Below are positions 2,135-57,889 of a DNA stretch of 64,000 bases, one piece after another. This DNA comes from a virus. How positions within the stretch are numbered: the stretch's first letter is position 1; each line of letters opens with the position of its first letter. The stretch is from IMG/VR virus record IMGVR_UViG_3300042897_000994, positions 96,938-160,937 of that record; one strand, written 5' to 3'. A program made the translations under genes and the position numbers. The notes under the pieces were generated by a model that saw nothing but the letters and a program-made list of their open reading frames with translations, was not told the origin of the DNA and made no database searches.

Positions 2135-2349
2135 ACCTAGTATTTGAAGCTACATTATCTGCACTAGAAACTCAGAGAAAAGAAGCGTTAGCAGAGCTTT
2201 CTGTATATTTTCTCAGAACTAATGAGTACGATAAATCCGCGATAATAGATGCAGTTAAAAAATTAAATGAAGCTGAAAGCTGTATCGAAACCTTGATGAA
2301 AAATTTCATAGAAGAAAATAATGAGCAACAGGATAATATTAGTGGGTAA
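2131..2349 (+). CDS. Hypothetical protein
   Basis: Overlap-coupled ORF. Confidence 0.6.
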   Translation: MNLVFEATLSALETQRKEALAELSVYFLRTNEYDKSAIIDAVKKLNEAESCIETLMKNFIEENNEQQDNISG

Positions 2350-2806
2350 GGCCGGGAGCGGTAAGGACCACATCAGAAAAAAATTCCAAAGGAGAGGCTT
2401 CGAGTATGCGATTTCATATACTACGAGGCCTCCTCGTGAAGGAGAAGTAGATGGTAAAGATTACTATTTTCTAAGTGATGAAGAGTTCACAGAGATGCAG
2501 AAAAATGATCTATGGTATGAGTGGGTTGAATTCAATGGTTGGAGATATGGAACCACGAAAGAGCAATTCTATTCAGAAAAGCCAATGGTCTTTATTATGA
2601 CTCCAGTAGGTCTTTCTCATGTAAAGGGTGAAGACAGAGAATCAAGCTTGGTAATTTATTTGGATATTGATAGACTTACGAGAATCAGAAGACTAGATGC
2701 CCGAAATATGCCAGGAGATTCAGTTTGGAGAAGAGTACAAGCTGATAGCGAAGACTTTAAAAACTTTAATAACTTTGATATTGTGATTAAAAACTCAGAT
2801 TTTTAG
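2321..2806 (+). CDS. gmk: Guanylate kinase
   Basis: P-loop GKAGSGKD; SYTTRPPREGEVDGKDYYF; YGT. Confidence 0.9.
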   Translation: MSNRIILVGKAGSGKDHIRKKFQRRGFEYAISYTTRPPREGEVDGKDYYFLSDEEFTEMQKNDLWYEWVEFNGWRYGTTKEQFYSEKPMVFIMTPVGLSHVKGEDRESSLVIYLDIDRLTRIRRLDARNMPGDSVWRRVQADSEDFKNFNNFDIVIKNSDF

Positions 2807-3192
2807 TGTTCACAATAGAAAATATCAAAGACAAAGATCTACTAAATAGAATAGTAGATGAAGAAACCGATCAAATATTCAAAAGACCGGGCAGAAGAGG
2901 CAGAAGCTATGATGAATTAAGAGCTTCAGTTTTGCAGGGTAAGGTTGCAGAACTTTACTTAGTCGAAACTGGAAAATATAAATTCTGCGATCTTAAATAT
3001 CATGATCTCTATAATCAAAAGAAACAGATTATAGAAGTTAAAGCTTATTCTTCTACTGAAATTCTCCCACCCTTCGTAATCAAAGATATCAGAAAGATTC
3101 AATCTTTAGATTGGAACAAATCTGATTGGTATTACTACTTTGGAGTTTTCGAAGGAGTGTACACTCTACATCAAAGAATAAAACTAAAGTAA
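2806..3192 (+). CDS. Hypothetical protein, possible PD-(D/E)XK nuclease fold
   Basis: GKVAE...HDLY...IIEVKAY pattern (E...D...EVK). Confidence 0.4.
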   Translation: MFTIENIKDKDLLNRIVDEETDQIFKRPGRRGRSYDELRASVLQGKVAELYLVETGKYKFCDLKYHDLYNQKKQIIEVKAYSSTEILPPFVIKDIRKIQSLDWNKSDWYYYFGVFEGVYTLHQRIKLK

Positions 3193-3219
3193 AAACAATT
3201 GTAAAAAAACTGATATAAC
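3193..3219 (+). promoter_or_regulatory. Phage promoter AAAC-N17-TATAAC heading the DNA-modification operon
   Basis: Same motif and spacing at eight other intergenic sites; ATG 4 nt downstream. Confidence 0.7.
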
Positions 3220-3223
3220 AAAT

Positions 3224-3793
3224 ATGCAAAAATATATTATCTTTGAAGGTCTAGATCGTTGTGGTAAAGACACTCAAGTTGGATTAGTACAAAAGTCTTT
3301 TTCGGATGAGACTTTTCATGTCTTCCATTATAGCAAAATCCCACTAGAAACTCCAGAACAAAACAGAGAATATAGTGAAAGAATGTATAGAGATATGTTC
3401 AATGTGATGATAGAGAATAAAGGTGAAAATAGAAATTTTATCTTCAATCGATCTCATCTCGGAGAATCTGTATATGCTCCTCTATATAGAAATTATTTAG
3501 GTGATTATGTTTTTAAGATTGAAGAAGAATATATCGAAGATCTAAAATCTAATCTTTATCTTGTAGTTTTGGTAAATGAACCTTCTATCTTAATCAGTAG
3601 AGAAGATGGAGATTCTTTAAGCAAAGGCGAAGAAGATATTGCTAAAGAAAAACAAATGTTTGAAAGAGCTTATTTTGAAAGCAAAATTCAAAATAAAATC
3701 TTGATCGACTGTGGAGTAGATAGCCCAACAGAAATTGCACAAATTATTAAAGACTTTATTTTAGATTCAGAAAATGAAAATATACCAGGGTAA
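3224..3793 (+). CDS. Thymidylate-kinase-like dNMP kinase
   Basis: IIFEGLDRCGKDTQ P-loop; FNRSHLGESVY. Confidence 0.8.
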   Translation: MQKYIIFEGLDRCGKDTQVGLVQKSFSDETFHVFHYSKIPLETPEQNREYSERMYRDMFNVMIENKGENRNFIFNRSHLGESVYAPLYRNYLGDYVFKIEEEYIEDLKSNLYLVVLVNEPSILISREDGDSLSKGEEDIAKEKQMFERAYFESKIQNKILIDCGVDSPTEIAQIIKDFILDSENENIPG

Positions 3794-4646
3794 TTCTTTC
3801 GCATCTGTATACAGAGATCTTCTGAACGATCTTTTAAATTCTCCTGAATATACATGTTCGCCTAGGGGAATGGAAATAAGAGAAATTACAGACTGTGCTC
3901 TAGTAATTGAAAATCCTGTCTTTGCAATGTATGAAAATGAGAGAAGATCTACTCAAGAAAAATATATTGCTGCAGAGTTTTTATGGTACTTTGCTGGTAG
4001 AAATGATTTAAGTTTTATCGAAAGATTCGCAAAGTTCTGGCAACATGTTGCAAATGAAGATGGAACTTTAAATTCTGCTTATGGAAATTTAATTTTCACA
4101 AAAAAGAATGAGCATAACATTTCACAGTGGGAATGGGCTTATAATTCATTAGTCGAAGATAAAGATACTCGTCAGGCAATTATGCATTTTAATATGCCTG
4201 AACACCAAAGACGTGGAAATAAAGATTTTGTTTGTACTCTAACTGGAATTTTTCAGATCAGAGAAAATAAATTGAATTTTACTGTGAACATGCGAAGTAA
4301 TGATGCCATCTTAGGAACTCCTACAGATATTCCTTTCTTCTGTGTTTTGCAGATCCAAATGTTAGAACTTTTAAAGTCTACATATCCAGATTTAGAACTC
4401 GGTACATATACACATTTTGCGCATTCTCTTCATATTTATGAAAGACATTTTCAACTGGTTGAAGAAATGTTAAAAGATGACAATTTTATTGCAAAAGATT
4501 TACCAAAAATCGATCAGACCCTGATATATAGATCAGGGAAACCCAACGAAAAAGTATTGGAAATGATTGATAAAATTGAAAAAGGCGAATCTGATGTAGA
4601 AGCAACAGGTGAAATTTTTAAATGGATTTATCAGAACATTTTCTGA
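3774..4646 (+). CDS. dCMP hydroxymethylase-type thymidylate synthase homolog (T4 gp42-like)
   Basis: SPRG, NSAYG, DTRQA, DFVCT catalytic Cys, MRSNDAILGTPTD with Asp at the pyrimidine-specificity position (Asn in ThyA), SLHIYERH. Confidence 0.8.
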   Translation: MKIYQGNSFASVYRDLLNDLLNSPEYTCSPRGMEIREITDCALVIENPVFAMYENERRSTQEKYIAAEFLWYFAGRNDLSFIERFAKFWQHVANEDGTLNSAYGNLIFTKKNEHNISQWEWAYNSLVEDKDTRQAIMHFNMPEHQRRGNKDFVCTLTGIFQIRENKLNFTVNMRSNDAILGTPTDIPFFCVLQIQMLELLKSTYPDLELGTYTHFAHSLHIYERHFQLVEEMLKDDNFIAKDLPKIDQTLIYRSGKPNEKVLEMIDKIEKGESDVEATGEIFKWIYQNIF

Positions 4647-4673: not shown

Positions 4674-5828
4674 ATGAACGTTACGAAATTTGAAAAGCCA
4701 GACACTTCCGTGAAATCGGTATATGTGTACTATTTTGGCAAGTATCCGAAGAAAACAAAACCAGCTAAAGATGTAACTTTACCTATCAGGCTTTGGCCAG
4801 AAGCTAAATTTTATATTAGATGTAATACTAAAGGAGGAATCGGAAAGAATAATCTGGAATATTTCTCTAATCTTTACAACGGAACTCAATTTGAGTTAGT
4901 AGAAGAAACTCTCGATCAAGTAGTAGATGCAGAAATGCTCTTTATCCATCATGAAAATTATAATGCATTTGGTGGAGTAGTTCGAGAATGCTGTATTCAT
5001 TTTGCTCAAATTCTAGGGAAATGGACGAAAAAGGCAACAGTTTTCTACAATGATGAATTATTCTCTGGTTTCTATGATATTAGGGATTGGTTAGAATCAA
5101 GATCAACAAATGAAAACTTCTTGAAAAATAATCCTCAAATTTTAGAAAGAGTTCCAAGAAGCGAAAATTGGGAAAATGTTACTCTGCTCATGAATGAAAA
5201 TAAAATCACAGACTGGGCTGATGTACATGTAAAAGACACTCTAACCGATAGAATTGAAGTTTCTTATCTATCAGATATTATTTTATATGATCTTCCTACC
5301 TCGGGAATGAAATATAAAAATAGTTATGAAAAGAAGGGAGTTTATGTTCCTCTGTTTACAGCAGAAAGAATTTCAGTTTGTAACAAACTTTTCAATGGAA
5401 ATGTAGAGATTACTTTTGCTGGATCTCGTTCAGATGAATTAAAAGAAAATATTGCAGGCGATGGAAAATACATTCAGAATTTTGAATTACCTGCATTCTT
5501 GAAAAAATTCGATTGGACTATTTATATCGGAAAGGGAAAGCAGTCTTCATATCTAGGAGCTACTTTTTACGAACCTCTATTAAAAGGTCTTCCTGTTTTT
5601 GTATGGACTGAAACCGACAAACAAAAGAAAGTTTTTGGTGATATCGATTGTTATTTCTCAACTGAAGATCAATTACAAAAGCTTGTTGAAAAGTGGGATA
5701 TGAAAGAACTTTACAAAACTCAAGTAGTACATATCTTCGGAAATGAACCTGAAGAAACTGGAGAATTTGAAAGTGTACAAGCTACAGAAATTCCAAAAGA
5801 AAAGCCTAAAGTAATTGCACTATTCTAA
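4674..5828 (+). CDS. Putative DNA glycosyltransferase, T4 beta-glucosyltransferase-like (GT-B)
   Basis: NYNAFGG...KWTKKATVFYND and IYIG...FYE...TETD...DCYF resemble remembered BGT motifs; directly follows the hydroxymethylase. Confidence 0.6.
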   Translation: MNVTKFEKPDTSVKSVYVYYFGKYPKKTKPAKDVTLPIRLWPEAKFYIRCNTKGGIGKNNLEYFSNLYNGTQFELVEETLDQVVDAEMLFIHHENYNAFGGVVRECCIHFAQILGKWTKKATVFYNDELFSGFYDIRDWLESRSTNENFLKNNPQILERVPRSENWENVTLLMNENKITDWADVHVKDTLTDRIEVSYLSDIILYDLPTSGMKYKNSYEKKGVYVPLFTAERISVCNKLFNGNVEITFAGSRSDELKENIAGDGKYIQNFELPAFLKKFDWTIYIGKGKQSSYLGATFYEPLLKGLPVFVWTETDKQKKVFGDIDCYFSTEDQLQKLVEKWDMKELYKTQVVHIFGNEPEETGEFESVQATEIPKEKPKVIALF

Positions 5829-6940
5829 TGATTGGAATAATTAGAACTCGACCATCTTTTGCAAGAGTAGAATATGAACCCTATCATTTTTTAAAATGGC
5901 TTGAGCTTTTTCCTCAAAATAGATTTTTGTGGTTGAGTAAAAATCCAGATAAAGTTAAAAAAAGATTCGGAGAAGAAAATTTTCCAGCAATAGAATCTTT
6001 TGATCTTGATGAATATTTTACAATTGAAAGTATCTCTGAACGTGAAAAGTATTTGGATGATTTAATTAAGAGTAAAAATCTAACTCAGATAATTACTATT
6101 CATAATGATATAAAGCAAAACTTTAAAAATGGAGCTGAAGAAAAGGGAACTTCCTTTTTTAACGGTATAGTAGAATCTGATAGTCTACCTACTTTTGTAT
6201 CAGTGAAAAATTTCTTTGAAGTTAATCACATTCCTTATTATCTTTCAAAGAAAATTCCAGTCGTTCATGTTTATGTAGATCCCCAAGAAGCATCTTGGAA
6301 TAGAATGACAGGATGCATTGAAGAAAAATATTTCTTCTATGAGAACTCAAGAATAGATGCAAAGTATCTACCTTTTGTAGAATGGAGTTTTTCAAAGCAG
6401 ATTAAAAAATATTCAAAGAAAAAGAAATTTGCATTTGGATTTACAGTAGTTACTGAAGACCGGGAACCTCTTTATTATCAATTAGCAGATATTAAAAATG
6501 TCAATTTTCTGGTTAAATTTCCGAAGATAGGAATTGATACCACGGTAAAAAGAGCCGATTATGCAGAAATGCTTAAAGAGAGTGAATTTACTCTTGTGAT
6601 TCCTTCGTATGAAGATACTGATTTTAGTAGTATTCGATTTTGGGATGCTATTACAAAAGCTTGCATTCCCTTTATTTTAGATACATGTAAATGGGAACAG
6701 GCTTTTGAGCAACATCCAGAAATAACAAAAATCATAAGTGAAGATCTTTTGGTGAATACTGATACCGTAAAAGAAAAGATTGAAAATACTGATTATGAAT
6801 CCTTGCTAAATAAAATCTGGAATACTCAAGACTGGAAAAATATTCAAGATCTAGAATGGTATCAAGATCAGATTAAGGGAATTTCATTTGCAGATTCTGA
6901 TAAACCTAAACCACCTTCCAAAAATATAGCTTTATTTTAA
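5828..6940 (+). CDS. Putative glycosyltransferase (GT-B), second DNA-modifying candidate
   Basis: FAFGFT...SEFTLVIPSY...SIRFWDAITKACIPFILD nucleotide-sugar-binding pattern. Confidence 0.6.
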   Translation: MIGIIRTRPSFARVEYEPYHFLKWLELFPQNRFLWLSKNPDKVKKRFGEENFPAIESFDLDEYFTIESISEREKYLDDLIKSKNLTQIITIHNDIKQNFKNGAEEKGTSFFNGIVESDSLPTFVSVKNFFEVNHIPYYLSKKIPVVHVYVDPQEASWNRMTGCIEEKYFFYENSRIDAKYLPFVEWSFSKQIKKYSKKKKFAFGFTVVTEDREPLYYQLADIKNVNFLVKFPKIGIDTTVKRADYAEMLKESEFTLVIPSYEDTDFSSIRFWDAITKACIPFILDTCKWEQAFEQHPEITKIISEDLLVNTDTVKEKIENTDYESLLNKIWNTQDWKNIQDLEWYQDQIKGISFADSDKPKPPSKNIALF

Positions 6941-7359
6941 TGGAATTACTCAACACCCACCCAATTAAAAAATCAGATTTAGGCTTTCATGGCAACCTTT
7001 TCGGAGGGAAATTGCTCGCCTGGATCGATGCAGCTGCTGCTGGGTATTCCATGCAATTATGTGACACCCCTAGAATGGTTACTGTATCAATTGATAAATG
7101 TATTTTTGAAAAGCCAGCAAGAGAAAGTCAGCTTTTAAAAATTTACGGAGAGCCAAGTGAATTAGGCAACACTTCAGTCACGATGTACCTAGAGGCAAGA
7201 GCTCATAATGTTTACACTGGCAGACAGACTCTTGTCTTAAAAACTCATATCAAATTTGTACATATTGATGAAGAAGGAAATCCAATTCCAATTGCAGAAA
7301 AAGGCAGAACTCGGGTACAAAAAATGATCGATTCAAAAACAAATATAGAAGAAAAATGA
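6940..7359 (+). CDS. Hotdog-fold acyl-CoA thioesterase (YciA-like)
   Basis: DLGFHGNLFGGKLLAWID, VTVSID, GNTS, FVHIDEEGNP. Confidence 0.85.
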   Translation: MELLNTHPIKKSDLGFHGNLFGGKLLAWIDAAAAGYSMQLCDTPRMVTVSIDKCIFEKPARESQLLKIYGEPSELGNTSVTMYLEARAHNVYTGRQTLVLKTHIKFVHIDEEGNPIPIAEKGRTRVQKMIDSKTNIEEK

Positions 7360-8375
7360 AAATATTAGTAGTAGGCGCAGGATTAAGCGGAGCAGTAGTT
7401 TCAAGACATTTAGCAGAAACTGGATGTAAAGTTACAGTTATCGATAAAAGAGATCACATTGCAGGAAACGCATTTGATTATACGAATGAACATGGAATAA
7501 GAGTTCATAAATATGGACCACATCTCTTTCATACTCGAAATGAAAAGATCTTTAAATATCTAAGTAGATTTACAGAATGGGTTCCTTACTTTCATAAAGT
7601 AAAAGCTCAGTTGGAAGATGGTAGATATGTCACACTCCCAGTGAATAAAGAAACAAAAGAGATTGTTGGTGAAGAAAACATTTTGGATATTTTCTTTAAA
7701 CCTTACACAAAGAAAATGTGGGGAAAGGAAATTGAAGAACTTGATCCGGGTATTGTAAACCGAGTGAAACAATTTACTCGAGATGATATGAATGATCTTT
7801 ATTTTCCGGACGATGAGTTTCAATGTATGCCAAAAGATGGTTATACTAAGATGGTAGAAAATATGTTTGAACATGAAAATATTCAAATCAATCTTTCAAC
7901 TGGATTTCATAAGAGTATGGAAGCTAATTTTGATTATGTTTTCAACAGTATGCCGATTGATGAATATTATGATTTTTGCTATGGTGAACTTCCCTATCGA
8001 TCAATCAAGTTTCATACTGTAGATCTTCCTGCACCAAAAATGTTACCTGCAGTTACTGTGAATTTTACTCATACTGGTAAATTTACTCGAATGACAGAGT
8101 GGAAAAATATTCCGGCACATGGAGAAAATCCCTCAATGACGACTTTGACTTATGAAGAGCCTTGCGATTATGCAGATAATGATAATGAAAGATATTATCC
8201 AGTCAAAGATGTTGAAGGTAAAAACAGAGAGCTCTTTAGTAAATATCAAGCAATAGAAAATCCAAAGACAATTTTTATGGGAAGATTAGGTCTTTATGTT
8301 TATATTGATATGCATCAATGTATCAGCTCTACTCTTACTATTGTGGAAAAATTCATTAAAGAGAAAAATGTATAA
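7356..8375 (+). CDS. glf: UDP-galactopyranose mutase
   Basis: VGAGLSG FAD motif, HIAGNAFD, HKYGPHLFHT, YTKKMWG, LPYRS, RYYP, GRLGLYVYIDM. Confidence 0.93.
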   Translation: MKILVVGAGLSGAVVSRHLAETGCKVTVIDKRDHIAGNAFDYTNEHGIRVHKYGPHLFHTRNEKIFKYLSRFTEWVPYFHKVKAQLEDGRYVTLPVNKETKEIVGEENILDIFFKPYTKKMWGKEIEELDPGIVNRVKQFTRDDMNDLYFPDDEFQCMPKDGYTKMVENMFEHENIQINLSTGFHKSMEANFDYVFNSMPIDEYYDFCYGELPYRSIKFHTVDLPAPKMLPAVTVNFTHTGKFTRMTEWKNIPAHGENPSMTTLTYEEPCDYADNDNERYYPVKDVEGKNRELFSKYQAIENPKTIFMGRLGLYVYIDMHQCISSTLTIVEKFIKEKNV

Positions 8376-9123
8376 AGATTTGTCAAGATTGCTATATGGC
8401 ACTTCTGATCCATATTCCGAATGGAAAAAAATTAATTTTCCCATTGAAAGAGACTATCCAATGACAAATATCTATTCTTCTTTAATACGAGAATCAATTG
8501 AAGAAACTAATACTAATTTTTGGTTAGAAATTGGCAGCATGTTTGGAGGTTCTGCGATTAAAACGGCTAAAGTTGCAAATAGTCTTAAGAAAGACATATC
8601 AATTATATGTATAGACCCTTTTTGCGGAGATGTTTCTATGTGGGAACACAATATTTTTTTAAAAAATCAAAGAGAACAAGGATTCATTGCAAAAAATTCT
8701 ATATATCTTGATCTAGATGGTTGCAGACCAACTTTAATGGATAAATTCCTCGGAAATGTAATTTCTGAAGGTTTCGAAAAAACTATCTTACCACTCCCTA
8801 CTACGAGTATGGTAGGAATGCGATTACTTGAAAGATTTAGAGAAGATAAAAAAATTGATAGAGGTCCGGGTGTAATCTATCTTGATTCTGCTCACGAATG
8901 GTATGAAACTTATATAGAATTAGTTACTGCATGGAGAATACTAGCTCCGGGTGGAATTTTAATAGGAGACGATTATGATTGGCCTGCAGTAAATCATGAT
9001 GTCAATAAATTTGCAAGAGACTATAAAGTTAAAATTTTAGAGAAAGAAAAAGCACATTGGATGATTAAAAAACCTCTAACTGTAGGATATTTAGCATCTC
9101 CTTTTTTTATGGGTGGGTATTAG
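8368..9123 (+). CDS. Class I SAM-dependent methyltransferase (Methyltransf_24-like); start probably ATG 8368
   Basis: LEIGSMFGGSA, CIDPF, IYLDSAH, LAPGGILIGDDY. Confidence 0.8.
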   Translation: MYKDLSRLLYGTSDPYSEWKKINFPIERDYPMTNIYSSLIRESIEETNTNFWLEIGSMFGGSAIKTAKVANSLKKDISIICIDPFCGDVSMWEHNIFLKNQREQGFIAKNSIYLDLDGCRPTLMDKFLGNVISEGFEKTILPLPTTSMVGMRLLERFREDKKIDRGPGVIYLDSAHEWYETYIELVTAWRILAPGGILIGDDYDWPAVNHDVNKFARDYKVKILEKEKAHWMIKKPLTVGYLASPFFMGGY

Positions 9124-9131
9124 ACACTCCG

Positions 9132-9161
9132 AGGAGATATATAAATAGAAAAATATCTCCT
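9132..9161 (+). promoter_or_regulatory. Late-type promoter (GATATATAAATA) inside an AGGAGATAT/ATATCTCCT hairpin
   Basis: Contains TATAAATA (T4 late consensus) at 9140-9147; 9-bp inverted repeat ending just before ATG 9164. Confidence 0.65.
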
Positions 9162-9163
9162 TG

Positions 9164-10651
9164 ATGCCACAAATTAAAAATCTAGACTCTTTCTTATCAG
9201 AAGGAGCTTCAGAACATAAGACAATATTAATTCTTACTGCAAGACCTAAGTCTTCTGATACCTCAGAAAGATTTGTCGAAGAGGCAAAGAAGAGAGGATT
9301 CAAAGCATATGTTGTAGATGTAAATTCAACTAAACTTGTTAAGATTGATGATAACAAGTTTAAAATAGAAAATACAGAAACAGGCAAAGGCCCAACGGTT
9401 AATAGATCAGAAACAGTAGTTCTCAGTAGAAGAGGAGTTCTCTCTAATACATTTACAAAAAATTTAGCGTATAGTTTAGAAAAAGCTAAATTTTTCTGCG
9501 TGAATAACATTCAATCTATGGAAACCTGCGAAAATAAGTATCTTGCAGGGGCACAGTTAGAAGCTGCGGGTATTCCAGTTCCTAAGACTGCGCTTCTACC
9601 AAATGATGAAAGCATAGATGAAGCTATCAAAAAGGTTGGAAGCAAATTTCCAGTTGTTGTAAAACTTCTTTCTGGCACTCAAGGTGTTGGAGTTTCGATA
9701 GTAGATTCTTATGCCTCTCTAAAATCAGTGTATCAGACTTTAAAGAAACTGGACAAGGGAGCAGAAATCCTGATTCAGGAAATGATTCCTTCTGATTATG
9801 ATATCAGAATACACGTTTTAAATAGAAGTTTTGATCCAGAAGATGATTCACCAGAGTCTTCTCAAATTATAGGAGCAATGAGGAGAAATAGAGTAAAGAA
9901 AGACTTTAGAACTAATTTTTCTCTTGGTGCAACAACACAAAAAATTAAACTAACTCCAGAGATCGAAGAAATTGCCAAAAAAGCAGCTAAAATCGTAGGA
10001 TGTGTTTGGTGTGGTGTAGATATTATCATCGACAAAAAGACAGGAAAGCCTTATGTTCTTGAAGTAAACTCTTCACCTGGAACGAAAGGTATCGAAAAAA
10101 CAACTGGAATTTCTGTGACTGGAAAAGTTCTTGATTTTCTTCAAGACCAAGGAAATTGGATGATGGACAGATTTGAAACAGGTTTTAGAGAAATTATCGA
10201 TATTCATGGAGTAGGAAAATTTGTAGCTAAATTCGATACCGGAAACGGTTCTAAGAGTAGTTCGATGCATGTCGATTCTTACGAAATAGAAGGAGATACT
10301 TTAATTTGGAAATTGAAAGGTAAAACTTATAAGAATCAGATCATAGGATATTCAAAAGCTGAAGTTGGAAAGCATACATTCAAAAGACCTATTATGCTTA
10401 TCGATATCAGTGTAGGTGGTAAAGTTCTTAGAGATGTTGAAGTAAGTCCAGTCGATAGATCAGGTAAAAGCACTCCTTTTCTTGCAAATAGAAAATTTAT
10501 GGAAAGAGCTGGTATCATGGTAAATCCTGATAGAGAATTCTATATTACTAACATTTCTTCAGTAGATAAAAACTTTAATGCAGTCGATGCTAAAGGAGAC
10601 AAACATGCTGGTATATCTGTAGACAATGATGTGGAGGACGAAGATGAATAA
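9164..10651 (+). CDS. RimK-family ATP-grasp ligase fused to a C-terminal RimB/retropepsin-like protease
   Basis: NK...IPVPKT, PVVVK..GTQGVGV, IQE, DIR, FRTNFSLG, GVDII, LEVNSSPG; C-terminal AKFDTGN...RP...DRS...FLANR. Confidence 0.85.
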   Translation: MPQIKNLDSFLSEGASEHKTILILTARPKSSDTSERFVEEAKKRGFKAYVVDVNSTKLVKIDDNKFKIENTETGKGPTVNRSETVVLSRRGVLSNTFTKNLAYSLEKAKFFCVNNIQSMETCENKYLAGAQLEAAGIPVPKTALLPNDESIDEAIKKVGSKFPVVVKLLSGTQGVGVSIVDSYASLKSVYQTLKKLDKGAEILIQEMIPSDYDIRIHVLNRSFDPEDDSPESSQIIGAMRRNRVKKDFRTNFSLGATTQKIKLTPEIEEIAKKAAKIVGCVWCGVDIIIDKKTGKPYVLEVNSSPGTKGIEKTTGISVTGKVLDFLQDQGNWMMDRFETGFREIIDIHGVGKFVAKFDTGNGSKSSSMHVDSYEIEGDTLIWKLKGKTYKNQIIGYSKAEVGKHTFKRPIMLIDISVGGKVLRDVEVSPVDRSGKSTPFLANRKFMERAGIMVNPDREFYITNISSVDKNFNAVDAKGDKHAGISVDNDVEDEDE

Positions 10652-11615
10652 GATTAAGCTGTTCGAAGAATTTATTCGAGAAGAAAAAAGTCCTAGAATT
10701 CTAGTCTTGAATTTTATGGTTGATAGTGTTTCTGCTGAAGGAACAGAAAAGAAATATGCAGACGGTTACAGAAGAGCAAATAATATTTTGGCTAGTAAGC
10801 TGAAAGAAAAGGGATTTACACCAGTTAACGCAGAGTATTCTGATCTCGTTTTTTCGAACTCGGATCTATTCGTAAACGAAGAGTCTCTATCTTCATTCGA
10901 CTTTGTATTTTTAGGCTTGATGGCCAAAAAAATGGAGTTAGCTAATATCGTAACCGATTATTTAAAAGATAAAAATATTCCTTATTTTTCCTATGGAACT
11001 CCTAGAGACAGGGGAAACAAGCTTGAAGATATGTGGAATCTTTCAAGAGAAGGTCTCCCTTATATTCCAACTTTCGTTTCTGCTTCATTTGAAGAATCAT
11101 TAAACTATATGAAAAATAACAAATGGGATTTTCCAGTAGTTGTTAAAGATATGGATAGTGCAGGCGGAGCAGGAGTTAGTAAAGCCGATGATGAAAAAGA
11201 ACTAAAAAAGCTTTTCGGCATTTCTGATGAAAAACACCAAGGAAACTTTGAAAGCTTTAAAATGATCCAAAAGTTTATTCCAAACGATGGAGATTATAGA
11301 GTTCTTATTTTTGATGGGAAGATTATAGCTATCGCAAAGCGTTGGACTGAAGACAAAAAGGAGTTCAGAAATAATATGTCTTTAGGCGGAAAGGGAAAGA
11401 TGGAAGACCTTCCCCAAAAAGAAAAAGATCTTGCACTAGCTGCAGCTCAAACCACCAGAAAACAGATGGCTGGTGTAGATTTAATACAGTCGAAAGATGA
11501 TAAAAAATGGTACATAATGGAAGTGAACAGCTCTCCACAGTATCACTATTTTTCTGAAATTCAGGACTTAGATTTTCCTCAATTACTTGCGGATTATATA
11601 GAAGACAAACTATGA
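10644..11615 (+). CDS. Second RimK-family ATP-grasp ligase; start probably ATG 10644
   Basis: FPVVVK..SAGGAGV, IQKFIP..GDYRV, FRNNMSLGG, AGVDLI, MEVNSSP. Confidence 0.85.
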   Translation: MNKIKLFEEFIREEKSPRILVLNFMVDSVSAEGTEKKYADGYRRANNILASKLKEKGFTPVNAEYSDLVFSNSDLFVNEESLSSFDFVFLGLMAKKMELANIVTDYLKDKNIPYFSYGTPRDRGNKLEDMWNLSREGLPYIPTFVSASFEESLNYMKNNKWDFPVVVKDMDSAGGAGVSKADDEKELKKLFGISDEKHQGNFESFKMIQKFIPNDGDYRVLIFDGKIIAIAKRWTEDKKEFRNNMSLGGKGKMEDLPQKEKDLALAAAQTTRKQMAGVDLIQSKDDKKWYIMEVNSSPQYHYFSEIQDLDFPQLLADYIEDKL

Positions 11616-55694: not shown

Positions 55695-56710
55695 TGTATA
55701 TGCAGAAGAAAAAAGATCTTATAATTATAACTGCTCATTGTCCATCCGAAGACAGAAGAGCAATTCTTCTTGATTTAGTGATAGGTCTACAACCAGTTAG
55801 AAAGGATTTTGATCTTATGGTAATAAGTCACACTCCAATAAGCACAGACGTTCAAGAAAGAGTAAACTGGTCTATATATGATGAAGACAATGAGCTGTTG
55901 AAAGATTGGATATATCAGAATGAGCCGTGGTTTTCTCCTAATGATACTATGAGAATTCAATCTATCTTTTTTGGGAGTGGAAATACTTACTTAACTCTGC
56001 ATAAACAACTAATTACGGGATATGCAATGTCTAAAGCATTTGGATATGAAAAAGTACAATTTATTGAATATGATGCATACTTCCAAGATTTTACAGAATT
56101 TTACAATAATTCTCGTGCATTAGATGAATATGATGCTATTCTATATACCAAAAATGATTCAGTTTTTGATACCTTAGAATATGGAATCGGTAATTTTCAT
56201 GCAGCGAAAATATCAAGTATGCCAGAAAGCATATTTAAGTTTGACAGAGAAGAAATTTTAAATGAAATTGAAAATAGTGCTTCTAAAACTACAGAAGTAA
56301 GAACTCACCGAATATACACTTCTGAAAATAGAAAAGTTCTCTTTAAAGATCACAATTTGATAATGAAGAACGGAAATATACTTAGAATGGTGGATTTTCA
56401 TAAAGGCGAATTTGAAATGCAGTGGGCAATTCCTTTTTATGATCATTCTTCAGATGAAATTAGATTTTTAGTTTGGAATGAAGCTTCAGAAAAACCTACA
56501 GATGTAGTTGTAATAGTCAATAATGAAAAAATAGTAAATTTTAATAAAATAGAAAAATTTCAGTGGTCTATTAAAACACTAGGTCATCCAAATGATATAA
56601 AGAATATCACAATTTTGATTAACAATAAAATGAAAAGACATATAGAATTAAATGAAAATAATATAGATCTTTTCAAAGAACTAAATAGAATTTACTATCA
56701 GAATGAATGA
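55694..56710 (+). CDS. Hypothetical putative glycosyltransferase (paralog family)
   Basis: DLIIITAH...ISH...FGYEKVQFIEYD. Confidence 0.55.
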   Translation: MYMQKKKDLIIITAHCPSEDRRAILLDLVIGLQPVRKDFDLMVISHTPISTDVQERVNWSIYDEDNELLKDWIYQNEPWFSPNDTMRIQSIFFGSGNTYLTLHKQLITGYAMSKAFGYEKVQFIEYDAYFQDFTEFYNNSRALDEYDAILYTKNDSVFDTLEYGIGNFHAAKISSMPESIFKFDREEILNEIENSASKTTEVRTHRIYTSENRKVLFKDHNLIMKNGNILRMVDFHKGEFEMQWAIPFYDHSSDEIRFLVWNEASEKPTDVVVIVNNEKIVNFNKIEKFQWSIKTLGHPNDIKNITILINNKMKRHIELNENNIDLFKELNRIYYQNE

Positions 56711-56856
56711 AATTGAAAGGGATTTGATACTATTAAAGTTAAAAAATGAAAATTGATAAAGTAATTTTTAGTATGGATGATAATCCGACTTACGCTGACT
56801 TTTGGCCTATCCAAGCTGACCTTGTAAAAACCATACTTAAAGCAGATCCTATATAA
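56707..56856 (+). pseudogene. Truncated duplicate of the gene junction at ~58425-58575
   Basis: MKIDKVIFSMDDNPTYADFWPIQA... vs MKISKVIFGLDDNPIYADFWPIQA; shared TTTGATACTATTAAAGTTAAAAA. Confidence 0.8.
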
Positions 56857-56950
56857 TGATAAATTACCTTATTATGATAATGAATATGATGAAAATGGGG
56901 AGTTTATTGGATGGTTAAGGAAAAAATATCCTAAAAATATACAACATTAA

Positions 56951-57889
56951 ATGAAGGATCTGATTCTTATAACAGCATATACGCCAGACGCAGAAAGAAT
57001 TTCTATATTAGATGATCTTTTAGAAAGTATAGACAGAGAACATTTTGATGTGATGATCTCTTCACACAGTTCTATTTCAGATGAAGTAGTTGAAAAATCT
57101 GACTATTTTATCTTTCAGAAAAAGAATGTTTTATTGACAGATTTAGATCAAAAAATCAAATGGTGGTTTGGAAACGAATCTCTGGAAATTTCAACAACCG
57201 AATTTAAAAACTTTAATCATTTAATAGCAGCTGGATCTCTCATTTTAAATGGCCTTTCTGCAGCTAAATCTTTTGGATACGAAAAGGTTCATTTTTTAGA
57301 GTATGATGGTCTTATAATAGATGATACTGAATTTAGAGAGAACTCTCAAATATTAGAAGAATATTCAGTGGTATGGTATGAACATCATGATTTACATACT
57401 TCCTTTCCGTTAATTTCTTTTAATGTTAAAAAAATCAAAGAAAATTGGTTTGATCTTAGCGATAATATTTTCTATTTATTTTTAGAAGAATCAGAAGATA
57501 ATATTCTTGAATCTTTTAATTTTAAAATGATAAGAGAAGAAAAAGCTTTCTGTAAAGGTGTTTCTTCTTTATTAAGCGGAAAAATAGAAACAAATAAATA
57601 TACTACAAACGAAGAAGACTGGATAACAGTAGTTTCTGATGGAAACAATTTTGTCCTTTTTGATTTTAATCATACTGGAATAAACGATATTAGCGTAATA
57701 ATAAACGATGATACTGTAAAAGTTTTTAGCAATCACAACAAAGGAACTTGGATGACTCGCACCCTCGGTAGAACTGAAGAAATCAATAAAATAAAAATAT
57801 TTCTTAATGACGCTTTAATACGTTCATATGATTTTAGTATTATTGATAAAGAAAAATACATCAAAAAAAATTGGATAAAGAACAAATGA
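56951..57889 (+). CDS. Hypothetical putative glycosyltransferase (paralog family)
   Basis: DLILITAY...SSH...FGYEKVHFLEYD. Confidence 0.55.
   Translation: MKDLILITAYTPDAERISILDDLLESIDREHFDVMISSHSSISDEVVEKSDYFIFQKKNVLLTDLDQKIKWWFGNESLEISTTEFKNFNHLIAAGSLILNGLSAAKSFGYEKVHFLEYDGLIIDDTEFRENSQILEEYSVVWYEHHDLHTSFPLISFNVKKIKENWFDLSDNIFYLFLEESEDNILESFNFKMIREEKAFCKGVSSLLSGKIETNKYTTNEEDWITVVSDGNNFVLFDFNHTGINDISVIINDDTVKVFSNHNKGTWMTRTLGRTEEINKIKIFLNDALIRSYDFSIIDKEKYIKKNWIKNK

Follow-up and report, generated by a model that had tools for sequence, protein, structure and literature searches.

We report that two adjacent genes in a stretch of viral DNA of 64,000 nucleotides (the window; bases 96938-160937, the right-hand 64 kb, of the single 160,937-bp virus contig IMGVR_UViG_3300042897_000994) encode putative DNA glycosyltransferases, here GT1 and GT2, that differ in their catalytic domains and share a lysine-rich C-terminal tail ending in Leu-Phe (LF). 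The tail recurs on core replication enzymes of the same phage, including its DNA polymerase, and by analogy with phage T4 it probably serves to dock GT1 and GT2 on the sliding clamp that the phage itself encodes.

Two dissimilar enzymes with one C-terminal tail

The two genes and the parts of their products that concern us here lie in the window as follows.

4674-5828, plus strand: GT1, 384 amino acids (aa); beta-glucosyltransferase (beta-GT)-like catalytic domain from aa 1 to about 355, then linker and tail
5739-5801, plus strand: GT1 linker, aa 356-376, NEPEETGEFESVQATEIPKEK; acidic and Pro-rich, hypervariable in sequence and length in the alignment
5802-5825, plus strand: GT1 C-terminal tail KPKVIALF, proposed clamp-docking motif
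5828-6940, plus strand: GT2, 370 aa; GT47/exostosin-like domain, then linker and tail
6914-6937, plus strand: GT2 C-terminal tail PSKNIALF, proposed clamp-docking motif, preceded by a short variable linker from about 6884

The C-terminus of GT1 reads ...PKEKPKVIALF, or in longer form ...IPKEKPKVIALF and ...QATEIPKEKPKVIALF, and that of GT2 reads ...KPKPPSKNIALF, ...DKPKPPSKNIALF and ...ADSDKPKPPSKNIALF. The two open reading frames (ORFs) share one base in a TAATG overlap. A sequence-only reading of the window had claimed that these are dissimilar proteins with the same tail, and that no other product of the window ends in this way. Both ends were confirmed, the alignment of GT1 with GT2 by hhalign gave a probability of only 0.3%, which excludes the two as paralogues, and apart from them 0 ORFs of the window end in LF.

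The contig has 34% GC and carries nearly all of its genes on the plus strand. Scans with PHROG and Pfam gave a T4-like gene set comprising a gp32-like single-stranded DNA-binding protein (SSB), primase, helicases, a split polymerase, UvsX, gp46/47, portal, prohead protease and major capsid protein, together with a gp55-like late sigma and a gp44-like clamp loader. The source is an uncultured T4-like phage with a genome of roughly 161 kb.

LF ends are enriched on replication enzymes

The scan covered the full 160,937-bp genome and its 167 plus-strand ORFs of 50 aa or longer. LF ends were found in seven of them, against 0.69 expected from composition or 0.71 from the frequency of internal LF dipeptides (Poisson P about 1e-5), and four ORFs end in [AS]LF where about 0.09 would be expected (P about 3e-6). 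The LF tail in this phage proteome is not a product of chance. Besides GT1 and GT2, it is carried by the following.

Genome 56232-57368: C-terminal half of the split family-B DNA polymerase, ending ...NLIYTTTLF
Genome 77101-78315: 5'-3' exonuclease/RNase H of the FEN type, ending ...KSKPSDSLF
Genome 94058-95998: gp39-like topoisomerase II large subunit, ending ...KKEKKSISLF
L003:4660-4872: 70-aa ORF beside the primase, of no family, ending ...KDSKDNLF
L004:3209-3775: 188-aa ORF between the gp41-like helicase and gp47, of no family, ending ...KKKIRRLF

Three of these carriers (the polymerase half, the RNase H/FEN nuclease and the topoisomerase II large subunit) are core replisome enzymes, and no virion protein among the 167 ORFs has an LF end. 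The small subunit of ribonucleotide reductase ends ...EDWEDIF, which we take to be the familiar large-subunit-binding tail of that enzyme and separate from the LF tails.

Some features of these carriers may be recorded here. The LF ends of the 70-aa and 188-aa proteins are both preceded by basic residues, and the 188-aa protein could be a gp33-like clamp-dependent transcription factor. The two halves of the family-B polymerase (N-terminal, L003:12763-14169; C-terminal, L003:18232-19368) are about 4 kb apart, with nrdB, nrdA, an Hc1 histone-like gene and the clamp gene between them.

The tail is conserved and modular

Homologue searches gave 41 sequences for GT1 and 17 for GT2, all of them metagenomic. 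As the sequence-only reading had anticipated for a functional motif, the tail is kept: the terminal L and F are invariant in all 21 tail-bearing homologues of GT1 and all 14 of GT2. The GT1 tails have S, A or Q at -3 and chiefly K from -6 to -8; when the GT1 and GT2 tails are taken together, -3 is nearly always S or A, -6 to -8 are again mostly K, and -9 to -14 are free to vary. Across 53 tails compared, F occupies -1 in 53 and L occupies -2 in 52, while -3 holds S in 23 cases and A in 17. At -4 the residue is one of I, T, N and K, and at -5 one of I, T, K, V and S.

A linker of 20-40 residues, acidic and Pro-rich, separates the catalytic domain from the K-rich patch and varies in both sequence and length. 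Tail and linker are jointly missing in 17 of the 36 GT1 homologues aligned and in 4 of 18 GT2 sequences, these being the 4 most distant, and most of the remoter homologues stop directly after the catalytic domain. This joint absence in distant homologues marks the tail as a short linear motif grafted onto the enzymes. The tail-less copies of GT1 and GT2 belong to another T4-like lineage, one with a canonical Gp23 capsid gene, in which the module of mutase, GT1 and GT2 genes is also kept.

The other carriers behave similarly. Polymerase orthologues in 4 genomes end ...IYT[TN][ST]LF or ...IYSSSLF (...TNSLF, ...TTSLF, ...SSSLF). In the 5 closest relatives the topoisomerase ends ...KQLF, ...KSLF, ...NALF or ...KAIF; in 17 remoter ones it is tail-less. 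A search of related loci with RNase H as the query gave no match; an orthologue (about 43% identity), which came later through a related contig, ends ...KKEKLF. Orthologues of the 188-aa protein end ...NKLF and ...RKLF.

Relatives with a different sugar-modification cassette (L033:4354-6655 and 8695-9975; L034:8691-9953) encode proteins of 454 and 311 aa that end ...KTKNIGLF and ...ESKKLF, as well as C5 DNA methyltransferases whose C-termini, ...KYKVNSTF and ...KYKTNSVI, are rich in Lys. Further tail carriers may be among these proteins.

The phage encodes its own sliding clamp

The clamp candidate is a 250-aa ORF at genome 55480-56232 (L003:17480-18232), outside the window and directly upstream of the C-terminal half of the polymerase. 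It is not recognisable by sequence: it had no match in Pfam, PHROG, NCBIfam or the PDB sequences, profile searches placed it outside the gp45 families PF02916, PF09116 and phrog_223, and its hhalign probability against T4 gp45 was 0.1%. In the opposite direction, the gp45 Pfam models, the beta-clamp model and phrog_223 gave zero matches in the genome, and phmmer with gp45 of HTVC008M and P-SSM2 gave noise only. The protein has 161 homologues, many on marine metagenome contigs, the best 120 of the 161 at 54-91% identity. An AlphaFold 2 (AF2) model made with an alignment of 41 homologues was confident (pLDDT 90.5, pTM 0.85) and consists of four beta-alpha-beta-beta-beta units; Foldseek matched it to PCNAs, the PCNA of African swine fever virus and bacterial beta clamps at probability 1.0 and TM scores of 0.60-0.68. 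Judged by this predicted fold, the 250-aa protein is the phage's own two-domain clamp of the PCNA/beta type, missed by current profile libraries. The clamp is presumably trimeric, and it is accompanied by the phage-encoded gp44-like loader.

The first clamp candidate had been a 234-aa ORF (genome 78732-79436) that follows the clamp loader and RNase H genes. Sequence searches with it were without result. AF2 gave a confident alpha/beta fold (pLDDT 91.4) whose best PDB match had an E value of 0.4, with none at E 0.001; a fold without a PDB match is not that of a clamp, and the candidate was ruled out. It forms a pair with a 139-aa gene (L005:2329-3436, genome 78329-79436) downstream of the loader and RNase H, and the pair is kept beside the loader in a related contig. 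ORFs of comparable length (131 and 248 aa) occupy that position in Sphingomonas phage PAU, a likeness of size and place only. The 139/234-aa pair may be the absent gp62-like loader subunit.

The 462-kb uncultured phage LR756500.1 has a clamp of the same family (52% identity), encoded beside a polymerase that ends ...IYSSSLF. Its beta-GT homologue (148817-150481; 418 aa, 26% identity to the T4 enzyme), which BLAST from GT1 misses, bears a Lys-rich C-terminal extension of 65 aa ending ...KSKKNKVESKSVDNIIEDLF (...IIEDLF). This phage is an independent case of a tailed beta-GT homologue in company with this clamp family.

Proposed docking of the tail on the clamp

The argument for docking runs through the polymerase. 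Its C-terminal half shares its end with both glycosyltransferases, and gp43, gp33 and gp55 of T4 bind the clamp through interchangeable ligands at their extreme C-termini, carried on divergent flexible linkers (PMC2988020). By this analogy the tail probably docks GT1 and GT2 on the phage sliding clamp.

We co-folded the clamp with the last 40 residues of GT1, using alignments for both. The median ipSAE was 0.41 (runs of 0.41, 0.00 and 0.54), and the best of 3 controls scored 0.00; at least 47% of contacts agreed between runs, and the pLDDT of the partner was at least 33. The mark applied is reached by 58 of 80 solved complexes and by 2 of 110 mismatched pairs, and at scores of 0.60 or less just 7 of those 80 complexes passed, along with both mismatches. 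A pass of this kind may mirror a likeness to solved complexes rather than binding, because PCNA-peptide complexes are common among solved structures. The co-fold with the phage clamp, which had been put forward as a check, gave weak support, with a median above all controls, and counts here as a small increment, the comparative evidence being the stronger argument.

Several observations weigh against docking on the phage clamp, or against the assignments that go with it. The only co-fold was weak, with one of its three runs at zero. The motif had been expected on the polymerase, the ligase and the late sigma; the polymerase half carries it, as do RNase H/FEN and topoisomerase II, but the 120-aa gp55-like late sigma (L004:9440-9802) ends ...GIYTI without a tail and no tailed ligase was seen among the proteins scanned. 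The tail is lysine-rich and closes in [S/A]LF-COOH, unlike the hydrophobic-acidic T4 epitope (gp43 ...ASLDFLFG), so that the analogy with T4 is one of function and not of sequence. For GT2, PF03016 scored 25.5 bits (E 1e-5), under the cut-off of 33.4 bits, and the same family stands in the precomputed Pfam column for 13 of 17 GT2 homologues. Finally, 5 of the 17 junctions with a TAATG or TGATG overlap come after an LF end, which hints at a possible confounder at the nucleotide level.

Of the alternatives, the one that survives best, though we think it unlikely, is that the partner of the tail is a different replisome hub, with the gp32-like SSB, the helicase or some scaffold as candidates, or that the tail is a localisation signal; it would still mark proteins that act on DNA, though with no clamp involved. 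Enrichment and conservation point to a shared partner and do not say which one, and the clamp co-fold is weak. We know of no hub other than the clamp, however, that reads a C-terminal LF. FEN-type nucleases use C-terminal clamp motifs (1rxm, 'C-terminal region of FEN-1 bound to A. fulgidus PCNA', is among the fold matches), and the polymerase of T4-type phages has its clamp ligand at the extreme C-terminus (PMC2988020), both of which favour the phage clamp as the partner.

A second and somewhat less probable alternative is that the LF end has no binding role, and reflects a degradation or stability signal, or a nucleotide constraint at translationally coupled junctions. It draws on the overlaps mentioned above, where 5 of the 7 LF ends are found. 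However, the polymerase and RNase H tails lie away from overlaps, and relatives keep LF at 11 of 14 junctions that are non-overlapping, with five Leu codons in use (CTT, CTC, CTA, TTA and TTG). The Leu and Phe codons are not uniform among the LF copies, and the GT1 and GT2 tails in the window are alike at only 15 of 27 bases. Since both the codons and the types of gene junction vary, selection is acting on the peptide, and a DNA repeat or gene-junction artefact is ruled out as the source of LF. A junction signal would also not need a linker of 20-40 aa that is gained and lost with the tail, and the carriers are all DNA-acting enzymes.

Least probable, by a small margin, is that the tail docks on the beta clamp of the host (DnaN). 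The ends of RNase H (...SDSLF) and topoisomerase (...SISLF) do resemble QL[S/D]LF, which is reportedly the bacterial clamp-binding pentapeptide of the Dalrymple consensus. LF alone can fill the beta-clamp pocket (4k3l, 'E. coli sliding clamp in complex with AcLF dipeptide', is among the fold matches), but the tails have neither the Q nor the first L of the bacterial motif, the phage has its own clamp and clamp loader, and its polymerase, which is not expected to use a host clamp, bears the same tail.

A probable DNA substrate and the putative modification operon

The genes around GT1 and GT2 are consistent with modification of DNA.

2321-3793, plus strand: nucleotide kinases, namely a guanylate-kinase-like deoxynucleoside monophosphate kinase (2321-2806) and a thymidylate-kinase-like protein (3224-3793)
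2806-3192, plus strand: ORF of no assigned family, flanked by both kinases
3774-4646, plus strand: thymidylate-synthase-family enzyme (PF00303, E 1e-22), most likely a dCMP hydroxymethylase
6940-11615, plus strand: rest of the putative modification operon, with a hotdog thioesterase, UDP-galactopyranose mutase, methyltransferase and two RimK-type ATP-grasp ligases

GT1 had no match in Pfam, PHROG or NCBIfam, a search of the genome with PF09198 was also empty, and the GT1 family profile gave no useful match among PDB sequences. Searches of a phage database with the DNA of the region and with the GT1 protein were empty, and GT2 gave one weak match. By hhalign, in contrast to these searches, the GT1 family aligned with a 7-sequence alignment of T4-type beta-GTs at a probability of 95.3% (E 2.1e-8, 288 columns), as against 50.8% with T4 beta-GT alone, and 1 of 36 GT1 homologues weakly matched PF09198 (E 0.0019). 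GT1 thus appears to be a remote homologue of T4 beta-glucosyltransferase, outside PF09198 by the curated cut-off.

The ORF at 3774-4646 falls far under the NCBIfam cut-offs for thymidylate synthase (63 against 327 bits). In a pairwise alignment with T4 gp42 it has equivalents of both Cys148 and Asp179, which we take to be the catalytic and the cytosine-specifying residue of gp42, respectively. This enzyme would supply the hydroxymethyl pyrimidine that GT1 and GT2 decorate. The remote homology of GT1 to T4 beta-GT and the dCMP-hydroxymethylase-like neighbour together lend support to the DNA substrate proposed in the sequence-only reading. We infer that hydroxymethylcytosine (hmC) is made at the nucleotide level and then glycosylated on the DNA, and the mutase, methyltransferase, thioesterase and ATP-grasp ligases downstream suggest further decoration. 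The tail is absent from all products of 6940-11615, and the synteny of the operon is kept in a related 164-kb contig.

The tandem RimK-type ligases (window 9161-11615), also kept in that contig, may use either the modified base or a protein as the substrate for addition of amino acids; the first of them (496 aa) has a C-terminal extension of about 170 aa ending in an acidic run, ...DNDVEDEDE. Just upstream of the kinases, at 422-2134, are genes for an IMPDH/GMP-reductase-like protein (422-1495), a KTSC-domain protein (1492-1755) and a cREC_REC receiver-like protein (1676-2134). At the left end of the genome (159-2828, L001) the longest ORFs translate to strings rich in Val, Leu and Glu (MVLMEVLVLVV...), perhaps because a repetitive gene, for instance a collagen-like one, is being read in the wrong frame.

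Comparison with known clamp ligands

The arrangement resembles that of T4 gp43, gp33 and gp55 (PMC2988020) in having an epitope at the extreme C-terminus with a hydrophobic or aromatic core, set on a divergent linker of variable length and common to polymerase and non-polymerase proteins, with clamp and loader both phage-encoded. As in T4, the same epitope ends the phage's own DNA polymerase (C-terminal half, ...YTTTLF). It differs from T4 in that the late sigma is without the tail, in that topoisomerase II, RNase H and two glycosyltransferases are among the carriers, and in that the clamp is not recognisable as gp45 by sequence.

The tail also resembles QL[S/D]LF and the PCNA-interacting protein (PIP) box (QxxLxxFF, C-terminal in archaeal FEN-1), which are short motifs ending in Leu-Phe or an aromatic residue, often at the C-terminus; these make the clamp a tool-belt, and a FEN-family nuclease is among the carriers. 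Against QL[S/D]LF it has [S/D]-L-F at positions 3-5 and lacks Gln 1 and Leu 2. It does not conform to the PIP box Q-x-x-[LIM]-x-x-[FY]-[FY], having a single aromatic residue and no Gln. Unlike either motif it has no conserved Gln, no second aromatic residue, variable positions -4 and -5, and basic residues upstream. By analogy, the tail would work like the T4 epitope, QL[S/D]LF and the PIP box, while by sequence it is a member of none of them.

In eukaryotes DNMT1 is recruited to PCNA via an internal PIP box. The proposed tethering of GT1 and GT2 resembles this in that a DNA-modifying enzyme is held on the clamp and its mark is put on nascent DNA; it differs in the chemistry (glycosylation, not methylation), in the internal position of the DNMT1 motif and in the enzymes, which are unrelated.

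The closest precedent among phage glycosyltransferases is T4 alpha-GT. Alpha-GT co-purifies with gp45 and beta-GT does not bind (PMC13216743, citing and re-testing Sommer 2004; also PMC6024577), and the association is taken to mean that glucosylation takes place right behind the fork (PMC13216743). Here too a phage DNA glycosyltransferase would be brought together with the replicative clamp. No defined C-terminal motif is described for alpha-GT in the text consulted, unlike the explicit modular tail borne here by a beta-GT-like enzyme and an unrelated GT47-like enzyme. The papers we searched contain neither a phage DNA glycosyltransferase with a defined clamp motif nor a link between a clamp and topoisomerase II.

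A model for co-replicative glycosylation

We propose a model in which GT1 and GT2 are DNA glycosyltransferases that would act on a hydroxymethylated pyrimidine, probably hmC, of the phage DNA. In each, a disordered linker that evolves fast comes after the catalytic domain, and then a lysine-rich patch and x-x-[S/A]-L-F-COOH. The terminal Leu-Phe would insert into a hydrophobic pocket of the trimeric PCNA-like clamp, and the clamp, acting as a tool-belt, would bring both enzymes to freshly replicated DNA, which would be glycosylated at the replication fork while it is being made. Both the binding of the tail to the clamp and the co-replicative modification are inferred.

In its broader form, which we judge to be evenly balanced between true and false, the proposal is that a clade of abundant marine T4-like phages, whose PCNA-like clamp is divergent, has a clade-specific tool-belt code consisting of a basic linker plus [S/A]LF-COOH, grafted repeatedly onto unrelated DNA-acting enzymes (beta-GT-like, GT47-like, topoisomerase II and FEN/RNase H). 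In relatives, unknown proteins may also carry this tail. On this broader view the moving fork would be physically linked both to DNA hypermodification and to the control of topology, and the tail by itself could serve to pick out those orphan phage enzymes that have DNA as their substrate.

The 250-aa protein represents a family of sliding clamps that escapes current profile libraries. Should the tail prove to be a clamp ligand, it would give a sequence-only marker of proteins that act on replicating DNA in a large, abundant and uncultured group of marine phages, and it would assign a DNA substrate to two orphan glycosyltransferase families. It would also predict a link between clamp and topoisomerase II that is so far unreported. 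The T4 observation on alpha-GT and gp45 would become a modular, transferable mechanism of co-replicative hypermodification, one that bears on the evasion of restriction and CRISPR.

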